Shown here: positions 2,326 through 37,923 of the stretch, piece after piece
How the letters are laid out: every line of letters begins with the position of its first letter
Numbering within the stretch: the stretch's first letter is position 1
DNA from: a phage
Assembly: GCA_020279385.1 (NCBI GenBank)
Contig: GCA_020279385.1_4762.2
Strand: one strand, 5' to 3'
DNA length: 64,000 nucleotides
Translations under genes and position numbers: made by a program
Notes under the pieces: model-generated
Told to the model about the DNA's origin: nothing
Database searches by the model: none
Seen by the model: the letters and a program-made list of their open reading frames with translations, nothing else

Positions 2326-3465
2326 TTAATCAACATCGAACTCTTTAAAGTTGTTGGATGTGACATGTTTATTGTCTCTAGGTAGTTTAAGAAGACTCAT
2401 AACAGGGTTAGTAAAATCACCGTTATCCTGAATATGAGTTGTTCTAACACCATTAACACCAAAGGAAGTAGGACCAGTAGTTTTGACGACTCCACTGATC
2501 GGCGTTATTAGTATGTTTCTAATTTTAACAATACCTTCGTTGGAGTTGGTTGGATATCTGATACAACCAGTTACTACACTATCAACTCCTTCCGGTACGG
2601 TATAGACGGCTTCAAACTTTTCCCATTGATCTTTCTGGCTGGCATTATAACGAACGCCAGTTTTATATTGTCCATCGGTGAAGTAGTTGTGATAGAAACG
2701 CGCTGTTACGTTGGCTGCGGCTGCGGCACTATCACGGAACAATTCAAAGGATATTGATAGTTTGTCACCTGCCTTTATGTTAAAATATTCAAGTGGTGCG
2801 CTGATCTCATCATGAGGCCATTGTATTAGCTCGAAATGTTCGGCATCTTCGCTAACATATTCAACCGGATAATCTAAAAATCGTTGTGGTGTTCCTGTTA
2901 TAGCAAGATCATCTATAGTATCATAGACTTTCTCAATTTGTATAGATGAATCTTGTCCTTCCCCGTGGGTCGCTTGCATCCCTTCGCACACAATTTTACC
3001 CATTTTAGTAGAATAAATTGCTGCATAGGATACACGAGGCATTTGCTGTAACAAAATATGATTCGGGAATGATACAGATCCCATCTTAGAAAACACATCA
3101 TCGCTTATCGGATCTGCAAACAATTCTCCATGCGTTGCCATCGCAATGATATAGTCACCTTTCAGCAAAGAAAGATAATCACGCATTGCCAAAACAGCAC
3201 CGCGACCATAGAATACCTTTTCTTCGTGTAGTTGTCCAGTTGGAGTAAGAACTTTAAAATTTAGGCCATTTTCATAGCCAGTGCCAACGATCTCCACTCC
3301 ATTAAATCTAATTCTTGCTGGTTTGGTAGAATCCGCATTAGATCCGCGCACTTCCAGCTTATACATCACAGAGTTATTTTCTGAAATGCTGGTAAATGTC
3401 GCAGAGTCTTCGTCGAAATGCGCAAACCTAATTCCAGTGTTGCGTAATTCTATCTCTTGTGTCAT
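2326..3465 (-). CDS. 35: Long tail fibre hinge protein gp35
   Basis: 379 aa ORF between gp34 and gp36; size and position match T4 gp35 (372 aa). Confidence 0.65.
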   Translation of the reverse strand: MTQEIELRNTGIRFAHFDEDSATFTSISENNSVMYKLEVRGSNADSTKPARIRFNGVEIVGTGYENGLNFKVLTPTGQLHEEKVFYGRGAVLAMRDYLSLLKGDYIIAMATHGELFADPISDDVFSKMGSVSFPNHILLQQMPRVSYAAIYSTKMGKIVCEGMQATHGEGQDSSIQIEKVYDTIDDLAITGTPQRFLDYPVEYVSEDAEHFELIQWPHDEISAPLEYFNIKAGDKLSISFELFRDSAAAAANVTARFYHNYFTDGQYKTGVRYNASQKDQWEKFEAVYTVPEGVDSVVTGCIRYPTNSNEGIVKIRNILITPISGVVKTTGPTSFGVNGVRTTHIQDNGDFTNPVMSLLKLPRDNKHVTSNNFKEFDVD

Positions 3466-3498
3466 AATAACCCCATAGGGGGCTTTCGCCCCCTTTAA

Positions 3499-6400
3499 TT
3501 AGTCTTCCCAGATAAAATCTACGGTACGAGTCAAATTATTGGCAATAATTTTAACATTACCAACCTTGATCCAATCACGAACCGTCATAGAGTTCATCAA
3601 ACCACCTTCGGCAACCACTGCCCCGATTTCCTGAGCGGTAGGCTTGTTCTGTTTGGTGTAAATTTCGCCCCATGCGGTCCATTGACCATCTGTACCAGAA
3701 CGGATATAATGCTTATGAGTACCATCAGGCGACCAGATTTGGGTAAGGCCGTTTTCGTCAGTACCCCATTGCATCAATGTACCATTTTTCTTTTCTGGGT
3801 AGGTTTCTTTGATGTTTTGGGTAGTTACTCGCATGTTCCAGAAGCCAATGTTACCAATTGCTGGCGCAGTAGTAGCGATCGCTTCATGCTTAACGGATAC
3901 AATAGACGCATTATCCATAATCAATTTACCAGTCATTGTATCACCAGCATTCTTAACAAACTGACGATTAAGAACTTCGTCTGCGTTTCCTGCGTGGACG
4001 ATCTGATATTTCTGTCCGGCAATCTCTGTAGTAAGCGTCTGATAACCTGCTTTGATGTTAACACTTCCACCGTGACCGATATTCAGCATACCATCTGGGG
4101 AACGAGTCATTGCCGGATTAGACTGGTCAACAATGTATAAACCGCCTTGTTTCGCATACAGGTTACGACCTGCAATAAAGTCTCTATATGCTGTCGCGTC
4201 GCCATTGTGTTCCATAGCAAAGGCGTAATGCTCGACTAATCCACCATCATTGATTTTACCGAAAGCGATAGCATTACTATCAACAACTTGAGATGTTCCA
4301 GTGCCACCAACGATAATAGACCATGAGTTTTCCATACCTTCCGATGCGGTTGCGCCATGCAGAGTAATTCCGGTGTGACCGTCAACTCCACGCTCACCCA
4401 ACACCAGATGACCATTACTCGGATCATCAGTCGAGTTCTTAGTCACAAACAGAGTTTCAAAGGAACCTGATTTTAAGCACTCTAAATCGCCCTTCACGTT
4501 AACGTTTTTATTAAACGTGTAATTGCTCTCAATGGTCTGGTCAATGTCTCTACGCGCCCATTTAGCGGCCTCTACGTCACCCAATTTCAAACTATTCTGA
4601 GCGGTTGCCATCTTAGGTAAGAAATTAGCAAGTGCGTAGTTTAATCCTTTAGGGGTAACAGCAATTCCGTCATGCTGGTAGTTTCCTAGTTCTTGAGTAG
4701 AACCTTGCAGATTGTCACCAACAAAACAGTTTTCCTGAGTAGCAACTTTCAAGAAACCACGACGAGCTTCGGTTGCTTTCCATGTATCCTCTGTCTGAAC
4801 AACATATTTGAAGTTCTTCGGAGAAATTGCTACATTAGCCAGTGTACCAGCCACGGTTTCGGCTTGAGTACCAACTCGGATAATACCTTCTTTACCTTCG
4901 GTGGCCTTTTTGCCTTGCAGCTTTTTAGGAGTAATGATCGTAGCGTCATCTTCTCCTGCGTCTGTAAGCTGAGTAGTTGCAACTTTAGCGACACCTTTTG
5001 TATCTTCGGTTGCATCAAGACCGCTGATCATGATACCCTGCCACAAGTCACCAGTAAGGTTAAGCCCCTGAGTCGGGTCTACTTTCAAACGCTGCGCATT
5101 CTCAAAGAAGGTTTTAATCTTCAATGGGGTAGAAATGCGAGCATCGTCAAGACCTGCGTCAAATTCCGGTTGAGTTGCAATTTCTGCTAAACCATGTAAA
5201 GTTTCCGTTGCGCGGCGAGTATGCAGCTTTTTAGGCGTGATGATATGGTTATCACTTTGACCTAAGTTTGTTTCTTCCTGAGTTGCAATTTCAGCGATAC
5301 CAGTGCGCGATTCGGTAGCAGTACGTTTCGTTAGCGTGCGAGTCGTGATTAGTAAAGCATCTTGCGGGGTTGATTCTGTAGCCCCTTGCACTTCCGCGTC
5401 AGTTGCCAGATAACCAACACCACGGGAAGTTTCGGTCGCCTTGACTTCGTTGATGTTTTGTGGCGTAACAATTTTAACATGGTCGTTGATGTTATAGATC
5501 CCTGTACCAGCTTCACCACGTCTAGCGGCAGCACTACCGCCAGCCTGAACAATTTCAGCAATACCAGCGAGATCTTCGGAAGCGCGACGTTCTTCTAATT
5601 TCTTAGGAGTAATAGCGCGGGTATCGTCTAAACCTTCATTGGTTTCTTGCTGGGTTGCAATTTCCATCACGCCACGACGGGCTTCGGTAGCAACACAATC
5701 ATTTAACTTTTTAGGCGTAACGATAACATCATCCAGGAAGCTGGAACCAGTATCTTGATGCGTTTCCGCTTGAGTTGCAATGCGAGCAATACCGCGTCGA
5801 GTTTCGTTGGCTGTTTTGTTAGCCAGAACCTTTGGAGTCACCGCAACTTCGTCGCTAGGATTATCTTCATGGTTTTTGTTTGTTTCATCCTGGGTAGCCA
5901 GTGCAATTACACCAACACGATCTTTACGAGTCGGATCTACTCGTTCTACAATCGGGTGAGCATGTGCCACCAACCAGTATTTCTTACCATCATCACCTTC
6001 TGAATAAGAGAACTCCAGATAAGGTACATAATCATTTGCAGCGTTGAAAGACAATTCAGACACTCCCGTCCATGTATCGGTCCCATTGAATGGGTACTCG
6101 CTACGCTTAGGAAACTGAACCATGTTTTTCTGAATAAGGATTTTTGTATCCTCTGTGGCGGTGATAATACGGCAATTCTGGTTTCCGTGCATATACTGCA
6201 TAGAAACTTGAATACGATCACCCGGCTCGACATTGGTTGGTAAAGTCAAGGTAACATCACGTTCACCAAATACTGCAACATAGCTATTAGGGGATAAGCG
6301 AGTATCACTAATGATAGGATTCAAGCGAACAGACTGATCACCATCCCACAAACGCCATAAGTTTTCCGGTTTGTCAAATATGAATACACCATGACCGCTA

Positions 6401-33149: not shown

Positions 33150-33178
33150 TTGACGGGGATCGGGAGATCCCCTATAAT
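33150..33178 (+). promoter_or_regulatory. PeSL-type early promoter
   Basis: TTGACG - GGGATCGGGAGATCCC palindrome spacer - TATAAT. Confidence 0.55.
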
Positions 33179-33211: not shown

Positions 33212-33379
33212 ATGTTCGAGACTAAAGCAGCATGTGAAGCATATATCATTGAAACCCACGGCGAAGATTATCTGAAATTTGACATTGTAGTAGCACAGAA
33301 GATTGTAGGGATGGTTGCGAAATACCTCGGAGTTAAAGAAGGTTACTATCCTAGCAACGCACCAGAAATTAACAAATAA
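33212..33379 (+). CDS. Hypothetical small protein (55 aa), duplicated cassette copy 2
   Basis: MFETKAACEAYIIETHGEDYLKFDIVVAQKIVGMVAKYLGVKEGYYPSNAPEINK; ~90% identical to the 29952..30119 product. Confidence 0.55.
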   Translation: MFETKAACEAYIIETHGEDYLKFDIVVAQKIVGMVAKYLGVKEGYYPSNAPEINK

Positions 33380-33393
33380 TTTTATAAAAAGTG

Positions 33394-33422
33394 TTGACAG
33401 GGGAGGATAACTCCCCTACAAT
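33394..33422 (+). promoter_or_regulatory. PeSL-type early promoter
   Basis: TTGACA - GGGGAGGATAACTCCCC spacer - TACAAT. Confidence 0.5.
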
Positions 33423-33462
33423 ACAACCATCAAGACGAGATACCACTTAGGAGAATCAAACA

Positions 33463-33714
33463 ATGGCTAACATCGAAACCGCAAAGAAAATCGCTAAAGA
33501 CCTGAACGTTAAAGGCTTCCGTAAACTGAAATTACAGCGTGTACGCTACACCATCGGCAAACAGTGCTCTTTCATGAGCGAAGAAGTTGCTAACAGCCTC
33601 ATTGATAACCTGATTGCGGCTGGCTGGGAAGTTGCGGATCTGAAAACTTGCCGCGAACTGGCTAACAAAGGTCTTTTAGATTCTGTTACTATCAAACCAA
33701 TGGGGGCAGCGTGA
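33463..33714 (+). CDS. Hypothetical protein (83 aa), first gene of coupled operon
   Basis: MANIETAKKIAKDL...; ATG after TAGGAGAATCAAACA. Confidence 0.5.
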   Translation: MANIETAKKIAKDLNVKGFRKLKLQRVRYTIGKQCSFMSEEVANSLIDNLIAAGWEVADLKTCRELANKGLLDSVTIKPMGAA

Positions 33715-33956
33715 AAAGAAAATTAATTAAACGCAATAAGGAATTTCTTAATAACTGCATTAAGGCCGCTAATGGTTGGCCTTTGTTCCTCTTCCTTTAT
33801 GATTGGTATTCTAAACAATCGGTAGAGGAAACACGACACTATAAGAAGATCAGAAAAGAATCATATACAAAACAAGGCCGCATTAACGGACTTTACTTAA
33901 TGTGGCACGGCAAAGAACCTTCTAAAATCTGTGTTGGATTAAAGGGGCGTATATGA
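33711..33956 (+). CDS. Hypothetical protein (81 aa)
   Basis: GTG start overlapping upstream stop (GTGA); basic N-terminus, hydrophobic WPLFLFLYDWY segment. Confidence 0.4.
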   Translation: MKRKLIKRNKEFLNNCIKAANGWPLFLFLYDWYSKQSVEETRHYKKIRKESYTKQGRINGLYLMWHGKEPSKICVGLKGRI

Positions 33957-34669
33957 AACAAAAATTAATATTCTGCAACTTTGACGGATCGGGGATAATG
34001 GGGCTAGAATGGGCTAAAGCAGGTCATAAGGTGATCTGCTTTAATGCTGACGATGGCGACCACGGCACATACAAAAAGTATAATACCCGATTTGAACATC
34101 CAAACATTACCTATGTAAACACATGGATTGATTTGAACTGGCTGGAAAGAGCAATGGACCTTGAATGGGGGAAACCGGATATTATCTTTGCATTCCCACC
34201 GTGCACCAATTTAGCTGTTAGTGGCGCTGCACACTTTGAACGAAAGAAACGAGAACAAGGACCATTGATTCAAGTTCATGATGTAAGGGCAGCTAAAATA
34301 ACCGCTTATTTGGGTGAATGGCTAGGAGTTCCCTACATGATAGAGAATCCTGTAAGCGTTATCTCTAGCATGTGGCGTAAGCCTGATTATATGTTCCATC
34401 CGTGGGAATATGGTGGTTATTTGCCGGAAGATGATAAGCATCCTACGTTTCCTGAGTATATTGCCGCCCGTGATATGTACCCGAAAAAGACTTGCTTATG
34501 GACCGGACAAGGCTTTATGATGCCAGAAAAGAAACCTTTGCAGATTAATAAAGGGTACAGTAAACAGCATTCTAAGCTAGGCGGGAAAGGAACGAAAACA
34601 AAGACTATAAGGTCACTTACCCCGCGAGGATTCGCAAAGGCAGTATTTGAAGCCAATAAGGATCTATGA
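33953..34669 (+). CDS. Cytosine-C5 methyltransferase-like protein (divergent, no obvious target-recognition domain)
   Basis: FCNFDGSGIMG (motif I-like), FAFPPCTNLAVSGA (motif IV-like Pro-Cys), YMIENPVSV (motif VI ENV-like); 238 aa; ATGA overlap with neighbours. Confidence 0.5.
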   Translation: MKQKLIFCNFDGSGIMGLEWAKAGHKVICFNADDGDHGTYKKYNTRFEHPNITYVNTWIDLNWLERAMDLEWGKPDIIFAFPPCTNLAVSGAAHFERKKREQGPLIQVHDVRAAKITAYLGEWLGVPYMIENPVSVISSMWRKPDYMFHPWEYGGYLPEDDKHPTFPEYIAARDMYPKKTCLWTGQGFMMPEKKPLQINKGYSKQHSKLGGKGTKTKTIRSLTPRGFAKAVFEANKDL

Positions 34670-34998
34670 TGAGATTGTTTAAGTATTCGCTAACGTCAAA
34701 TTACGATAAACAAGGTCATTGCATCCGTTGCCCTGATTGTCATAGCCATAACATCGAAAGCAAGATCACCGATCATATTGATGGACTTTGGTCGCCAGCA
34801 AGTGAAATAGAATACTATTGCTCTGATTGTGGAATTGTAGTAGCATATTGGGCATACGGATCATATGATCCATACTTCCAGATGGGAGAGCGTTCAATCC
34901 CTGCGCTCATCTGGAGAATTAAGAACAATATCCGCCATTCATGGGATGAGTTCTTAAAAGATATTGATTTACGTGATGATCCATTCAGGAGACTATAA
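34666..34998 (+). CDS. Zinc-ribbon protein (110 aa)
   Basis: CIRCPDC ... CSDCG (CxxC-x29-CxxC); coupled to flanking genes. Confidence 0.5.
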   Translation: MMRLFKYSLTSNYDKQGHCIRCPDCHSHNIESKITDHIDGLWSPASEIEYYCSDCGIVVAYWAYGSYDPYFQMGERSIPALIWRIKNNIRHSWDEFLKDIDLRDDPFRRL

Positions 34999-34999
34999 C

Positions 35000-35518
35000 A
35001 TGAACCGTTTAACGCCTAAACGCCGCTACTATACCAATACTAAAAACTTTGTTATCTCTGTTTACGAAGCATGGTTAGAAGATGGCTATATCAACATGAA
35101 CCCAGATTATCAGCGTCCTTTAGTATGGGACACCGAAAACAAACGTATGTTTATTGAAAACCTGATTAATGATTTTCCGGTTGGTGCTATCGCAATGGCT
35201 AAGATTGATGATGGCTCTCGCTATGAGATCGAAATCGTGGACGGTAAACAGCGTTTAAACGCAATATTCTCCTTTATGAAGGATGAGTTTAGCATTGCCG
35301 GTAATGATGATTCTATGTTGTATTACAGTGATTTTACGCCAGCAGAAAAGCGACGTTTCCGAAATCTCGGACTACCCGCGATCATGATGGAAGAGAGCAC
35401 ACGAGAAGACCGATTAGAGTATTTCTACAAAACAAACTTTTTCGGTGTGCCTCAATCGGAAGAACATCGCCAGCATGTGATTGCCCTATTGCAAGATGAG
35501 CAATTAAAAAATAACTAA
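35000..35518 (+). CDS. DUF262 (ParB/GmrS N-terminal-like) domain protein
   Basis: DYQRPLVWDTENKRMFIENLINDFPVGAI...IVDGKQRLNAI matches the DUF262 signature (DxQR...W...DGQQR); ATG after CAGGAGA. Confidence 0.6.
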   Translation: MNRLTPKRRYYTNTKNFVISVYEAWLEDGYINMNPDYQRPLVWDTENKRMFIENLINDFPVGAIAMAKIDDGSRYEIEIVDGKQRLNAIFSFMKDEFSIAGNDDSMLYYSDFTPAEKRRFRNLGLPAIMMEESTREDRLEYFYKTNFFGVPQSEEHRQHVIALLQDEQLKNN

Positions 35519-35525
35519 AAAGTTG

Positions 35526-35554
35526 TTGACAGGGGATCGGTGATCCCCTATAAT
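35526..35554 (+). promoter_or_regulatory. PeSL-type early promoter
   Basis: TTGACA - GGGGATCGGTGATCCCC - TATAAT; same spacer as 29890..29918. Confidence 0.55.
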
Positions 35555-35590
35555 GCACACATACCGAAACGAACTACTAAGGAGTATCAA

Positions 35591-35803
35591 ATGGCTAACA
35601 TCGAAATCATCATTACCGACGTAACTTATGACCGCATTAACGAAATCGGTACTGCATTACTGGAAGATGGAACAACTCGTACCATCAACTACGCAGAATA
35701 CGTTGAAATGCGTGGTTGTATTAAACGAGTAGGAAAATATACCCTGATTGAAAAAGACTATTCAGGATACACCTTAGAGCAATTGCTTGATGGTGCATTA
35801 TAA
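35591..35803 (+). CDS. Hypothetical protein (70 aa)
   Basis: MANIEIIITDV...; first five codons shared with 33463 ORF, so the repeat runs into the coding start. Confidence 0.5.
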   Translation: MANIEIIITDVTYDRINEIGTALLEDGTTRTINYAEYVEMRGCIKRVGKYTLIEKDYSGYTLEQLLDGAL

Positions 35804-35871: not shown

Positions 35872-37923
35872 ATGTTTAACTTAGAAATCGACGATCTAAT
35901 GATTGAATCTTTCGAGAAATGGCTGTTGACGGAAGAGGAAGAAAACTTTGGCAGTATTGCTCCTGTACAGTGCTTAAAGCCTAAGCAGAATCCTAAACAG
36001 CTTTTTGCAGTACAGACACGCGATAAAGATGTGATTGTCCGTCTTTGCAACTTCACCAACAAAACACCTAAAATCATTCGTATGGGCGACAAGACCGCAC
36101 ATGTTGTACTGTGCGAAATGAACAAAAGCGGTCGTATTGTACAGCTTAAAAATGGTCTAGGCGATAACCCGATTGCAGTCATGGCAAGTGCTTTTGATGT
36201 GGTTATGGAAACAGCCCGTAAAGCGCAATTAGACGCTGTTATGTTCCGTTTTAACGTATCCCGCATGAAAGGTAAGACCGAACTGATTAAGCGCGTTATA
36301 GAGCGTTTGGTGCGTCGTACACCGAAGTTTGAAGTATTCCAGCAGGAAGTAATGACCAGCAAAAAGATCGCTTTAGTTGTTGTCAAGCGTCGCGGGATAG
36401 CGATTGATAAGATTAAAGGGATTAAACTTGATGAATCCTTGTTCACTAAAGTAGAAAGTGATTTAGGTGATCGCTGGGTATCTAAGGCTACTGGTGAATC
36501 TCTGACTAAAGATGAAGCGTATGCGGCTAGTCTTGTGTCAGAAGAAGAACGAAACGCGGAAGCAGAACAACGCGTAGCGGCTAAATCTCGTTTGACTAAA
36601 GAAGAAATGCTGAAAACTCAAGCGACCTATAACAGCGACTATGTGAATCATCCAGAAAAAATTAATCTTAAACCGGAAGAAGATATCACCGAAGCCGAAC
36701 CTAAGAAACAGTTTAATACTCTGATTGACCGTCAAGCCTTAGAACGTTCAACCGCCCGTTCTCTGAATGACTGGACAAGTGATATTATCACTCGCTATGG
36801 TTTCATGCGTACTATTTTTGAAAGCGAAGCCGATGCAAAATACGCAGTAAGCGAACTGGTAAAAGTTCAGGATCAATATGATCCGTTGTCTGCGGAAGTT
36901 ATCGCAGCATCAATCAAACGCTTAAAAGAAATCATGAGCGAGGAAGTATTCGAAAACAAGATCACCGCCCTGGCAATGGATCGAGTAGACCAGTCTATGC
37001 CAGCAGATGTAAAAGCTGAAATGCTGCGTAGTCATATCACCCAGATTAAAACCGATGCCCTACGTAATGTTGCTTCCGGTATGTTTGAAGCAATTGCTAG
37101 CAACATGGGTGAAATGATGGCAGATATTGATCTTGATCTGCCAGGTGCGGAAGGTTTTGTGTTGAGCGAATATGCGGATGCAGCATACATCAATATGAAC
37201 AACTTCCTAACCGACCGTAAGCTGGAAGAATTTGATGGTATCGCAGATCCAGAAGAATTGGTCAAGATGTGCGATGCACTGGATAATGCCTTCTCTAACT
37301 ATGGTGTTAAACTTGATCCGGGTACTATTCTGTATCGTGGTATGGACTTCCGGTCTCAAATGTGGGAAACTGCACGTAAGCAAAAAGCGTTTTACTTTAA
37401 AAACTATGTGAGCACTTCCCTTGCACCTAACATTTTTGGCGGCTGGAATGCAAACGTGGCTAGTGCCGTTGCTGGTGTTGATTCTATGGCTGGCTCTCGC
37501 GGTGAAGGTGGCGCTAATGTTGCTTTCTCCATTGCTGGCGCGGAAAACATCCCTGTATTGCCAGTAGGTAACAAAGCATTTGCTTACAAAGAATGCGAGA
37601 TTTTACTTCCTCGCGGTGTTGTGTTATCCTTTGATACGGTAACTCGTGCTACGGCATCGACGGATTCACAAGAAACTTATTACATTGAGGCACATATTAT
37701 GAACAAAAATGAACTGGCAGCATTACAAGAATCTGGCGAGATGATCGCGGACGGTGATGCATTCATCCGTGAAGGTGTTGTTAAACCTGCTTCTGACCTG
37801 TCTTTCTCCAGCTTTATTACCGAAGCTAAAACCGAACGTAAGAAAGCAGATAAGGCAACTCTACGTCAGCTTATCGCTGATCTGGTATCTGTAGACGCAA
37901 TGCCAGATAAATTTAAAATGTAA
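35872..37923 (+). CDS. alt: Alt-like ADP-ribosyltransferase
   Basis: 683 aa (T4 Alt ~682 aa as recalled); ART R-S-E triad LYRG, YVSTSL, KECEILLPRG; position next to gene 30. Confidence 0.85.
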   Translation: MFNLEIDDLMIESFEKWLLTEEEENFGSIAPVQCLKPKQNPKQLFAVQTRDKDVIVRLCNFTNKTPKIIRMGDKTAHVVLCEMNKSGRIVQLKNGLGDNPIAVMASAFDVVMETARKAQLDAVMFRFNVSRMKGKTELIKRVIERLVRRTPKFEVFQQEVMTSKKIALVVVKRRGIAIDKIKGIKLDESLFTKVESDLGDRWVSKATGESLTKDEAYAASLVSEEERNAEAEQRVAAKSRLTKEEMLKTQATYNSDYVNHPEKINLKPEEDITEAEPKKQFNTLIDRQALERSTARSLNDWTSDIITRYGFMRTIFESEADAKYAVSELVKVQDQYDPLSAEVIAASIKRLKEIMSEEVFENKITALAMDRVDQSMPADVKAEMLRSHITQIKTDALRNVASGMFEAIASNMGEMMADIDLDLPGAEGFVLSEYADAAYINMNNFLTDRKLEEFDGIADPEELVKMCDALDNAFSNYGVKLDPGTILYRGMDFRSQMWETARKQKAFYFKNYVSTSLAPNIFGGWNANVASAVAGVDSMAGSRGEGGANVAFSIAGAENIPVLPVGNKAFAYKECEILLPRGVVLSFDTVTRATASTDSQETYYIEAHIMNKNELAALQESGEMIADGDAFIREGVVKPASDLSFSSFITEAKTERKKADKATLRQLIADLVSVDAMPDKFKM

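Follow-up and report, generated by a model that had tools for sequence, protein, structure and literature searches.

Five small genes, g1 to g5, lie chained behind a single promoter in the DNA of a phage, of which one stretch of 64,000 nucleotides (the window) was analysed. The third gene resembles a DNA cytosine-5 methyltransferase and the fifth a DUF262 protein. Do these genes form a functional unit, or are they independent genes that share a promoter? The initial annotation regarded the combination as an unusual DNA-modification or anti-restriction module. We consider it probable that the locus is an early unit of independent genes, including the orphan Dcm-type g3, which is delimited by two promoter-early stem-loops (PeSLs) and lies in a hyperplastic region of a Krischvirus genome.

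The cassette and its boundaries

The phage is a Krischvirus (RB49-like), as 57 Krischvirus records match the locus at 98-99% identity, and the earlier reading of a T4-like phage is thereby borne out. The Krischvirus genome is of the RB49 type, i.e. T4-like with unmodified cytosine. The five genes have their counterparts in RB49 (RefSeq NC_005066, see Table 1), where g2 is an addition to the annotation by Arbiol et al. 2010.

Table 1. Features of the cassette, with positions in the window.
Feature	Position	Strand	Product or elements	Evidence
Upstream PeSL	33394..33422	+	TTGACA, GGGGAGGATAACTCCCC hairpin, TACAAT	
g1 (RB49p190)	33463..33714	+	83 aa	phrog_14908 E=5e-59; RefSeq CDS
g2 (RB49p189.1)	33711..33956	+	81 aa, basic protein	phrog_7065 E=8e-38
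g3 (RB49p189)	33953..34669	+	238 aa, predicted Dcm-type DNA (cytosine-5)-methyltransferase	phrog_757 E=2e-90
g4 (RB49p188)	34666..34998	+	110 aa, zinc-ribbon protein	phrog_2993 E=8e-34
g5 (RB49p187)	35000..35518	+	172 aa, stand-alone ParB-DUF262 domain	Pfam GmrSD_N
Downstream PeSL	35526..35554	+	TTGACAGGGGATCGGTGATCCCCTATAAT	exact pattern match; promoter scan 12/12

All five ORFs are real genes: each matches a PHROG family, with E-values from 8e-34 to 2e-90, and a Shine-Dalgarno-like run is found upstream of every start. The proposed chaining by overlapping stop and start codons is present at all junctions, with GTGA at 33711 (g2 has a GTG start that overlaps the stop of g1), ATGA at 33953 and 34666, and TAA-C-ATG at 35000. 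In addition, g4 has a second in-frame ATG at 34669. Stop/start coupling of this kind is the norm in such early-gene clusters.

In RB49 and phi1 a PeSL is defined as TTGACA-N17-TATAAT around a Gn-loop-Cn stem (PMC4122927). Both sites at the locus conform to this definition of a regulatory cassette, and they flank variable early ORFs. The promoter proposed earlier at 33394 is a PeSL: it has a GGGGAG...CTCCCC stem-loop inside TTGACA-N17-TACAAT, matches the pattern exactly and scores 11/12 in the promoter scan. A second perfect copy lies just past g5, at a distance of 8 bases. Six occurrences of the pattern are found in the window, where 0.01 would be expected, and the best three sigma-70 matches between 33000 and 36000 are the two PeSLs and a site at 33150.

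Judged from its sequence, the upstream PeSL is predicted to drive the cassette, and it probably also terminates the preceding unit. The downstream copy would close the cassette and start the next early unit. Host sigma-70 RNA polymerase would start at 33394 and the five ORFs would be translated as a coupled chain, with the PeSL at 35526 ending the unit, as suggested by its anatomy and by the published PeSL model.

A predicted compact methyltransferase, a bare DUF262 domain and three small proteins

The initial annotation read g3 as C5-methyltransferase-like on the basis of its FDGSG, PPC and ENP motifs, and saw no evident target-recognition domain in it. These motifs are conserved among 32 homologues of 56-64% identity. 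In motif I, F10-x-G12-S-G14 (here F10-D-G12-S-G14), the residues F10, G12, S13 and G14 are invariant, and the same is true for P82-P83-C84-T85 of motif IV, where the codon of Cys84 is at 34202-34204, and for E131-N132-P133 of motif VI. We take the segment K178-K179-T-C-L-W183 to be motif VIII, from comparison with the DNMT3A sequence; K178 is invariant and K179 nearly so in the same set. About 40 residues separate this segment from RSLTPRG, and the C-terminus is reached 13 residues further on.

Against the Pfam model DNA_methylase, g3 scores 14.6 bits compared with a gathering score of 22 (E=0.023), over the N-terminal 100 residues only, and seven of the 32 family members match PF00145 at E<=0.01, the best at 1.3e-6. 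The three-dimensional fold of a C5-methyltransferase is present; among PDB structures, Foldseek returned generic Rossmann methyltransferases only. Although sub-threshold in Pfam, the assignment is confirmed because of the fold and the family evidence. The short form was noted there as well. The brief stretch past the putative motif VIII, with no apparent separate target-recognition domain, is conserved throughout the compact family, which at 50% clustering has 1985 representatives, nearly all of 210-260 aa, so the size is conserved across a large phage family and is not peculiar to this locus.

The Dcm of phage K42, a KarlJaspers-like Warwickvirus, is the trigger of the retron Ec86/Eco1. It raises 5mC on the Ec86 msDNA as detected by LC-MS, it is active alone on expression in E. 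coli, and dcm lesions are found in four Ec86 escaper phages; its CCWGG specificity is an assumption by analogy with the host Dcm and was not mapped (bioRxiv 10.1101/2023.08.16.553469). Residues 1-235 of g3 match gp41 of the Warwickvirus tonijn (blastp, 55% identity, E=5e-93), in which C82, E128, K175 and K176 are the positions mutated in K42 Dcm. C84 and E131 of g3 correspond to C82 and E128 of K42 Dcm, and the KK pair to K178 and K179. From sequence and fold, g3 is predicted to be an orphan, compact phage Dcm-family DNA cytosine-5 methyltransferase, an activity shown for the homologue.

Given the fold and what is known of the family, Cys84 in PPC would attack C6 of a flipped-out cytosine and Glu131 in ENP would protonate N3, while the target would be recognised by a short loop past motif VIII, as in DNMT3-type enzymes. 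The SAM-dependent enzyme, made early, would most likely methylate specific sites on the replicating phage DNA and also on host DNA, and this methylation could shield the DNA from some type II restriction enzymes. In the homologue, it is this activity that the retron Ec86 senses. The native background of Ec86 is E. coli B (bioRxiv 10.1101/2023.08.16.553469). E. coli B is also the routine host for growing RB49, so the RB49 enzyme may not act on that msDNA; this growth argues weakly against efficient triggering of Ec86.

The fifth gene encodes a lone DUF262 domain, as originally suggested. It matches Pfam GmrSD_N above the gathering score (E=4e-20) and contains all three DUF262 motifs: Q38-R-x-x-x-W43 (as YQRxxxW), D81-G-K-Q-R85 and N146-x-x-G-V-P-Q-S153. 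The fold is ParB N-terminal-like (ParB/Srx) with an arginine-rich nucleotide-binding motif. Both a ParBDB DNA-binding domain and a nuclease domain are absent from g5, whose ORF ends at residue 172, and no nuclease match was found among g1-g4 in Pfam and PADLOC. The g5 protein is not a restriction enzyme. Assignment of g3 and g5 to other families by profile searches was what the initial annotation had named as speaking against its reading; the searches placed neither of them in another family.

The missing nuclease, which had also been pointed out, is a conserved property of a short phage subfamily of 160-200 aa, found in T4-like and P22-like phages, for which the bare form is typical and in which the motifs and the NFxGVPQSxEH tail are invariant. 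A single-sequence word-indexed search gives 7 relatives; the larger set used here comes from a profile search. The product of g5 would be a minimal ParB/Srx-fold DUF262 domain, probably NTP-binding, acting with neither a nuclease nor a DNA-binding module fused to it. The ORFs between g5 and alt are of 87 aa or less.

The three other genes would encode small accessory proteins. In g1, residues 43-75 resemble a single PPR-type helical hairpin (weak matches to designer PPR proteins), and there is a weak match to PADLOC RT_UG35 (E=2.6e-5). The cysteines of g4, C19xxC22xxC25 ... C52xxC55, form the CxxCxxC...CxxC motif of the zinc ribbon that had been proposed; the match to Pfam Zn_Ribbon_TF is below threshold (E=5e-4), and gp22 of phage 9g is 44% identical. 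A search for structural relatives found no informative solved structures for g1 and g4, and NCBIfam has no models for g1, g2, g3 and g5.

DNA modification and CCWGG avoidance

The DNA of two of these phages speaks against bulk modification: no modified nucleoside was detectable in that of Krischvirus TB34 (PMC13390438), and HpaII and NheI both cut that of RB49 (PMC4041780). For Krischvirus SAP glucosyl-hmC has been reported. TB34 and SAP have the same 2134-bp operon, identical at every base, so it can be removed from the candidates for the difference in cytosine modification between these two phages. Methylome data on phages that carry a g3-type enzyme (Webervirus) were sought in the literature, with no useful result.

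In the window, CCWGG has an observed/expected ratio of 0.29 and is the sole depleted site among 16 sites of the form XYWY'X'. In other phages that carry the g3 family the ratio is 0.94 (tonijn) and, pooled, 0.92 and 1.08; compared with the Warwickvirus tonijn, the depletion is seen in the present phage only. Mutational decay of methylated sites was considered as its cause and rejected: CTWGG/CCWAG, which deamination would produce, show no enrichment (ratio 0.52 in the window), which favours selection against CCWGG. Such a strong and specific depletion is not what one would expect of a protective CCWGG methylase. The target of g3 in Krischvirus may differ from CCWGG, and this would explain why CCWGG is avoided in the present phage alone.

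Independent genes or one module

Relatives of g3, g4 and g5 are found in 1524, 286 and 325 phage records, respectively, and their distributions differ. Of 80 viral loci with a g5 relative, a relative of g3 lies no more than 6 kb away in two, both of them Krischvirus, and the same two are the only ones with g4 or g5 among 80 loci with a g3 relative. The zinc ribbon and g5 stand beside g3 only in Krischvirus. When neighbours were clustered over 80 loci, no partner of the short DUF262 gene was conserved across lineages, and the clusters follow phage lineages only. A 319-aa ORF that overlaps the Lw1 homologue has no counterpart at the present locus. In phage kaaroe an extra ORF lies between g4 and g5.

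This distribution suggests five accessory genes, each independent of the others, that have gathered in one slot and are not an obligate system. The idea of an unusual functional module is not upheld: the joint occurrence is confined to Krischvirus, TB34 carries the identical operon and yet has canonical DNA, and the g3 family has had a characterised member, K42 Dcm, since 2023.

It is improbable that g3-g5 are a cooperating DNA-modification unit, in which the C5-methyltransferase would be loaded, activated or timed by the DUF262 protein, possibly together with the zinc ribbon. In favour of it, translational coupling links the three genes, which in Krischvirus are neighbours in every case, g5 retains its motifs, and a ParB-fold activator encoded beside a post-replicative DNA base-modifying phage enzyme is documented, namely ParB176 with the thymine dioxygenase 5mYOX176 (PMC13229309). 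Phage ParB-CTPase folds are also often fused to DNA methyltransferase domains (PMC12704722), and cooperation specific to one lineage would be compatible with the lack of conserved linkage. However, the K42 homologue works alone, the ORF in kaaroe separates g4 from g5, and the two-in-80 counts together with the absence of a neighbour family common to different lineages argue against such a unit. Further, the activators that have been documented are ParBs of the PF02195 type, which carry a C-terminal dimerisation domain, and do not belong to DUF262; the ParB176 pairing is conserved across homologues (PMC13229309), whereas that of g5 and g3 is confined to one genus. An anti-defence role of g5, poisoning or decoying host DUF262 immunity (GmrSD/BrxU, SspE, DndI, Menshen NsnA) through mixed dimers or competition for a nucleotide or DNA signal, is improbable too; it could also cover 5mC made by g3. 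The best defence-library matches of g5 are NsnA (E=1e-20) and then PD-T4-2_A, two defence enzymes, BrxU and SspE, are among its structural neighbours, its expression is predicted to be early, and it is conserved with invariant motifs in lytic T4-like phages and P22-like prophages although it has no effector parts. Against this, TB34 escapes BrxU restriction simply because its DNA is unmodified (PMC13390438), the family has no linkage to methyltransferases in other phages, and the conserved NTP-binding motifs would suit an enzymatic or a regulatory role just as well.

We give very little credence to the reading that g3 makes no 5mC in DNA but transfers another group, e.g. carboxymethyl from host Cx-SAM, or has RNA or free nucleotides as its substrate. 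It could then feed an unrecognised modification pathway, perhaps that of glucosyl-hmC in SAP, but 5mC is formed by the K42 homologue, HpaII and NheI cut RB49 DNA, and an operon identical to that of SAP is found in TB34 with its canonical DNA. It is likewise unlikely that the locus holds something new, with g5 as a counter-defence decoy against DUF262 immunity or as a nucleotide-dependent activator of g3, linked to a Krischvirus Dcm target other than CCWGG.

The early unit of independent genes is of known kinds, an early-gene cassette of an RB49-type coliphage that is already annotated. Krischvirus phages, which are in wide use and under consideration for therapy, encode a homologue of the Ec86-triggering enzyme, so they may be sensed by Ec86 or may have diverged to avoid sensing. 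The lone DUF262 subfamily and the specific avoidance of CCWGG are well-defined questions.

In comparison with known systems, K42 Dcm belongs to the same compact family (236 versus 238 aa), with the catalytic cysteine, the glutamate of ENP and both lysines of the KK pair conserved in g3, and is likewise an orphan gene without a restriction partner, annotated as DNA methyltransferase/Dcm. The phage family and the neighbouring genes are different, and so is the loop that precedes the (K/R)LGGK segment, with GYSKQHS in g3 and DNPGWA in K42-type enzymes; this putative recognition loop reads GYSxQH in the Krischvirus type and NPGW in the K42 type. The catalytic domains of DNMT3A and DNMT3B, as well as M.HhaI, M.HaeIII and M.MpeI (PF00145), are 12-16% identical to g3, which differs from them in having no apparent separate TRD lobe, a truncated C-terminus and no recognisable motifs IX/X. 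GmrSD (GmrS/GmrD, BrxU), SspE, DndI and Menshen NsnA share the DUF262 (GmrS) domain with g5, which in contrast ends after the DUF262 core, has neither the ParBDB middle domain nor a DUF1524/HNH nuclease, has no partner gene nearby and is encoded by a lytic phage. The cassette in RB49 has been annotated since 2003 and the PeSL mechanism was described in 2010. From the PeSL cassettes of RB49 and phi1 (Arbiol et al. 2010; Comeau et al. 2014) there is no essential difference: like these, the present locus has a near-perfect sigma-70 promoter wrapping a Gn-loop-Cn hairpin and small variable early genes in a hyperplastic region adjoining alt, and it is one such cassette.

The five-gene cassette and its PeSL elements

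The window comes from the genome of a Krischvirus (RB49-like, Straboviridae). For the 2134-bp region that holds the five genes, 57 Krischvirus records give matches spanning 80% or more of the length, with 97.9-98.9% identity among the matches listed; the region's counterpart in RefSeq NC_005066 is the series RB49p190, 189.1, 189, 188 and 187, where RB49p189, the counterpart of gene 3, already carries the name "DNA methyltransferase". The initial annotation had described five chained ORFs behind one PeSL (promoter-early stem-loop, a sigma-70 promoter wrapped around a hairpin). Both the promoter and the ORFs are there, with the junctions GTGA, ATGA, ATGA and TAA-C-ATG and a Shine-Dalgarno-like run ahead of each start. 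Each of the five ORFs has a match among the PHROG families (E from 8e-34 to 2e-90) and is therefore a real gene. The initial description is correct; the biology is ordinary and has mostly been annotated before.

The downstream PeSL copy means that the genes are bracketed by two such elements. Six copies of the pattern are found in the window, compared with 0.01 expected. The elements agree with the published definition from RB49 and phi1, in which PeSLs are composite promoter-terminator elements flanking shuffled early ORFs (PMC2839356, PMC4122927). Given the position of the Alt-like ORF, the cassette belongs to the hyperplastic region that precedes alt.

Features of the cassette and its surroundings in the window
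Feature	Position	Strand	Remarks
PeSL-type promoter/stem-loop	18034-18062	+	
PeSL-type promoter/stem-loop	28751-28779	+	
PeSL-type promoter/stem-loop	29890-29918	+	identical to the copy at 35526
PeSL-type promoter/stem-loop	33150-33178	+	
PeSL promoter	33394-33422		TTGACA-N17-TACAAT around GGGGAG/CTCCCC hairpin
Gene 1 (RB49p190)	33463-33714	+	83 aa
Gene 2 (RB49p189.1)	33711-33956	+	81 aa
Gene 3 (RB49p189)	33953-34669	+	238 aa
Gene 4 (RB49p188)	34666-34998	+	110 aa
Gene 5 (RB49p187)	35000-35518	+	172 aa
PeSL, second, perfect copy	35526-35554		eight bases past the gene 5 stop
Alt ADP-ribosyltransferase gene	35872-37923		683-aa ORF just downstream of the cassette; Alt-like RNA polymerase ADP-ribosyltransferase of RB49 (RB49p184)

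Compared with TB34, another Krischvirus phage, SAP shows a 79-bp tandem duplication at about 4622-4702 in locus coordinates, immediately past gene 5, that takes in the gene's end as well as the PeSL behind it. Upstream there are five small indels; the operon of five genes is unchanged between the two.

Genes 1 and 2 encode conserved small proteins. Residues 43-75 of the gene 1 product look like a single pentatricopeptide-type helical hairpin: against designer PPR proteins the summed phmmer E reaches 9e-10, with no single stretch significant. The same protein matches a C-terminal stretch of the PADLOC RT_UG35 (DRT) model (E=2.6e-5). Gene 4 is, as had been proposed, a zinc ribbon (CxxCxxC...CxxC, phrog_2993); its relatives come from Nonagvirus 9g (44%), from Felixounavirus (about 28%) and from some podoviruses.

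Gene 3 and the compact phage Dcm family

The reading of gene 3 as C5-methyltransferase-like holds up, as motifs I, IV and VI and the fold of the superfamily are all present. The score against Pfam DNA_methylase is below threshold (14.6 vs 22 bits, E=0.023, residues 10-100), and sequence searches of PDB gave no match. About 40 residues separate the KKTCLW segment from RSLTPRG, the protein ends 13 residues beyond it, and motifs IX and X are not recognisable; this layout, in which a separate target-recognition domain is not evident, is shared throughout the family. In an alignment of 32 family members at 56-64% identity, seven reach Pfam PF00145 at E<=0.01; F10, G12, S13, G14, P82, P83, C84, E131, N132, P133 and K178 are invariant, and K179 is nearly so. 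The family is very large and uniform: it comprises 7309 clusters in a 90% database, mostly of 219-259 aa among the matches listed, and 1985 representatives at 50% clustering, nearly all of 210-260 aa. Relatives occur in 1524 of 50,697 phage records, chiefly from Escherichia, Klebsiella and Salmonella phages, with Drexlerviridae and large myoviruses among the listed matches.

In a preprint on retron Ec86, four mutants of the Warwickvirus K42 that escape the retron have lesions in dcm, a gene of 711 bp; expression of K42 Dcm is toxic only when Ec86 is present and raises 5mC on msDNA as measured by LC-MS, while a C82A/E128A/K175A/K176A mutant is inert (10.1101/2023.08.16.553469). Gp41 of Warwickvirus tonijn, a protein of 236 aa, also comes from a 711-bp gene, and precisely these four residues, C82, E128, K175 and K176, are present in it. 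Over residues 1-235 gene 3 shares 55% identity with gp41 (E=5e-93), and its C84, E131, K178 and K179 align to these four positions. Gene 3 therefore belongs to this compact phage Dcm family, which has a functionally characterised representative, and would work like it. The target sequence, however, is not transferable: that K42 Dcm recognises CCWGG was presumed from the host Dcm and is backed only by msDNA mutants (10.1101/2023.08.16.553469), and the loop ahead of the (K/R)LGGK segment reads GYSxQH in the Krischvirus enzyme but NPGW in K42 and tonijn.

Genome modification and CCWGG avoidance

The operon does not modify the genome in bulk. HpaII and NheI cut RB49 DNA, which was described as unmodified (PMC4041780). 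In TB34 no modified nucleoside is detected by HPLC-MS, whereas the sister phage SAP is reported with glucosyl-hmC, without a known pathway (PMC13390438). The 2134-bp operon is base-for-base identical in these two phages, so it cannot account for their difference. Such assays would miss a site-specific enzyme with sites as rare as CCWGG, at about 22 per 64 kb; methylated CCWGG would, by our estimate, account for a small fraction of one percent of the cytosines.

Six-base palindromes are strongly avoided, with 25 of 64 missing from the window, including GAATTC, AAGCTT, GGATCC, CTGCAG, GGTACC, GTCGAC and TCCGGA. Among hexamers with an expectation above 8, a zero count is seen for 20 of 56 palindromes vs 38 of 3583 non-palindromes. 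The observed/expected ratio (O/E) in the window is 0.40 for GGCC and 1.06 for GATC. In our reading, such extreme avoidance fits an unmodified phage exposed to restriction pressure.

Of 16 XYWY'X' sites, CCWGG alone is depleted (22 observed vs about 76 expected, O/E 0.29), and there is none at 33300-35600. Mutational decay can be rejected as the cause, since the deamination products CTWGG/CCWAG are not enriched in the window, which argues for selection. The Krischvirus enzyme may have a different target and leave CCWGG unprotected, protection may be incomplete during very fast T4-type replication, or the methyltransferase may have been acquired recently. In tonijn CCWGG is undepleted (O/E 0.94), yet 23 six-base palindromes are missing; pooled O/E values for 76 other methyltransferase-bearing loci are 0.92 and 1.08. 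RB49 is propagated on E. coli B (PMC4041780), which is the native Ec86 background (10.1101/2023.08.16.553469); this hints that the RB49 enzyme does not efficiently trigger the retron.

Gene 5 and the composition of the cassette

The initial annotation had also suggested that the methyltransferase and the DUF262 protein could form a modification or anti-restriction module. We find no support for this: the genes differ in distribution, and in the loci surveyed their linkage is confined to Krischvirus. Relatives of genes 3, 4 and 5 occur in 1524, 286 and 325 phage records, respectively. In a set of 80 IMG/VR loci containing gene 5 relatives, a gene 3 relative occurs within 6 kb in two, both Krischvirus, and no neighbour family in this set is common to several lineages; among 80 loci containing gene 3 relatives, the two Krischvirus loci are again the only ones with genes 1, 4 or 5. 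In tonijn the methyltransferase gene sits among small ORFs near a helicase, and in 9g the zinc-ribbon gene has a protease-like gene on one side and gp21, a small hypothetical ORF, on the other. In the Pseudotevenvirus Lw1 (locus L004) the DUF262 homologue (2974-3507, 177 aa) is followed by an overlapping, unrelated 319-aa ORF (3504-4463). Conservation of this ORF is limited to the Pseudotevenvirus lineage, and the operon of the window contains no equivalent. The cassette is variable even inside Krischvirus: kaaroe (locus L087) has an additional 59-aa ORF at 2831-3010, between genes 4 and 5, with overlapping stop/start codons. The best reading is a PeSL slot holding collected, independent accessory genes.

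Gene 5 is a bare ParB-DUF262 protein, in line with the signature noticed at the outset. It matches Pfam GmrSD_N (E=4e-20), and its top match in the defence library is Menshen NsnA (1e-20); a profile of 34 relatives matches the DUF262 chains of DndI, BrxU and SspE in PDB. The stretches Q38-R-x-x-x-W43, D81-G-K-Q-R85 and N146-x-x-G-V-P-Q-S153, in which most residues are invariant, agree with the three motifs reported for DUF262 in defence proteins (PMC12065111). Relatives are found in Pseudotevenvirus (Lw1, RB43), Klebsiella myoviruses of ~175 kb, P22-like prophages and T4-like phages of Yersinia, Pectobacterium and Pantoea. They are also short (160-200 aa) and have the same end point, so a truncation peculiar to this phage is rejected.

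In NsnA, DndB, GmrSD and SspE, DUF262 is always followed by a "ParBDB" DNA-binding domain, which gene 5 lacks, as it lacks a nuclease. Thus it has the sensor domain of GmrSD-type enzymes without their defining nuclease and is not a type IV restriction enzyme. The bare domain might act as an anti-defence decoy, or as a ParB-type activator of the adjoining methyltransferase, although we consider this improbable; precedents are 5mYOX/ParB (PMC13229309) and the ParB-methyltransferase fusions of phages (PMC12704722).
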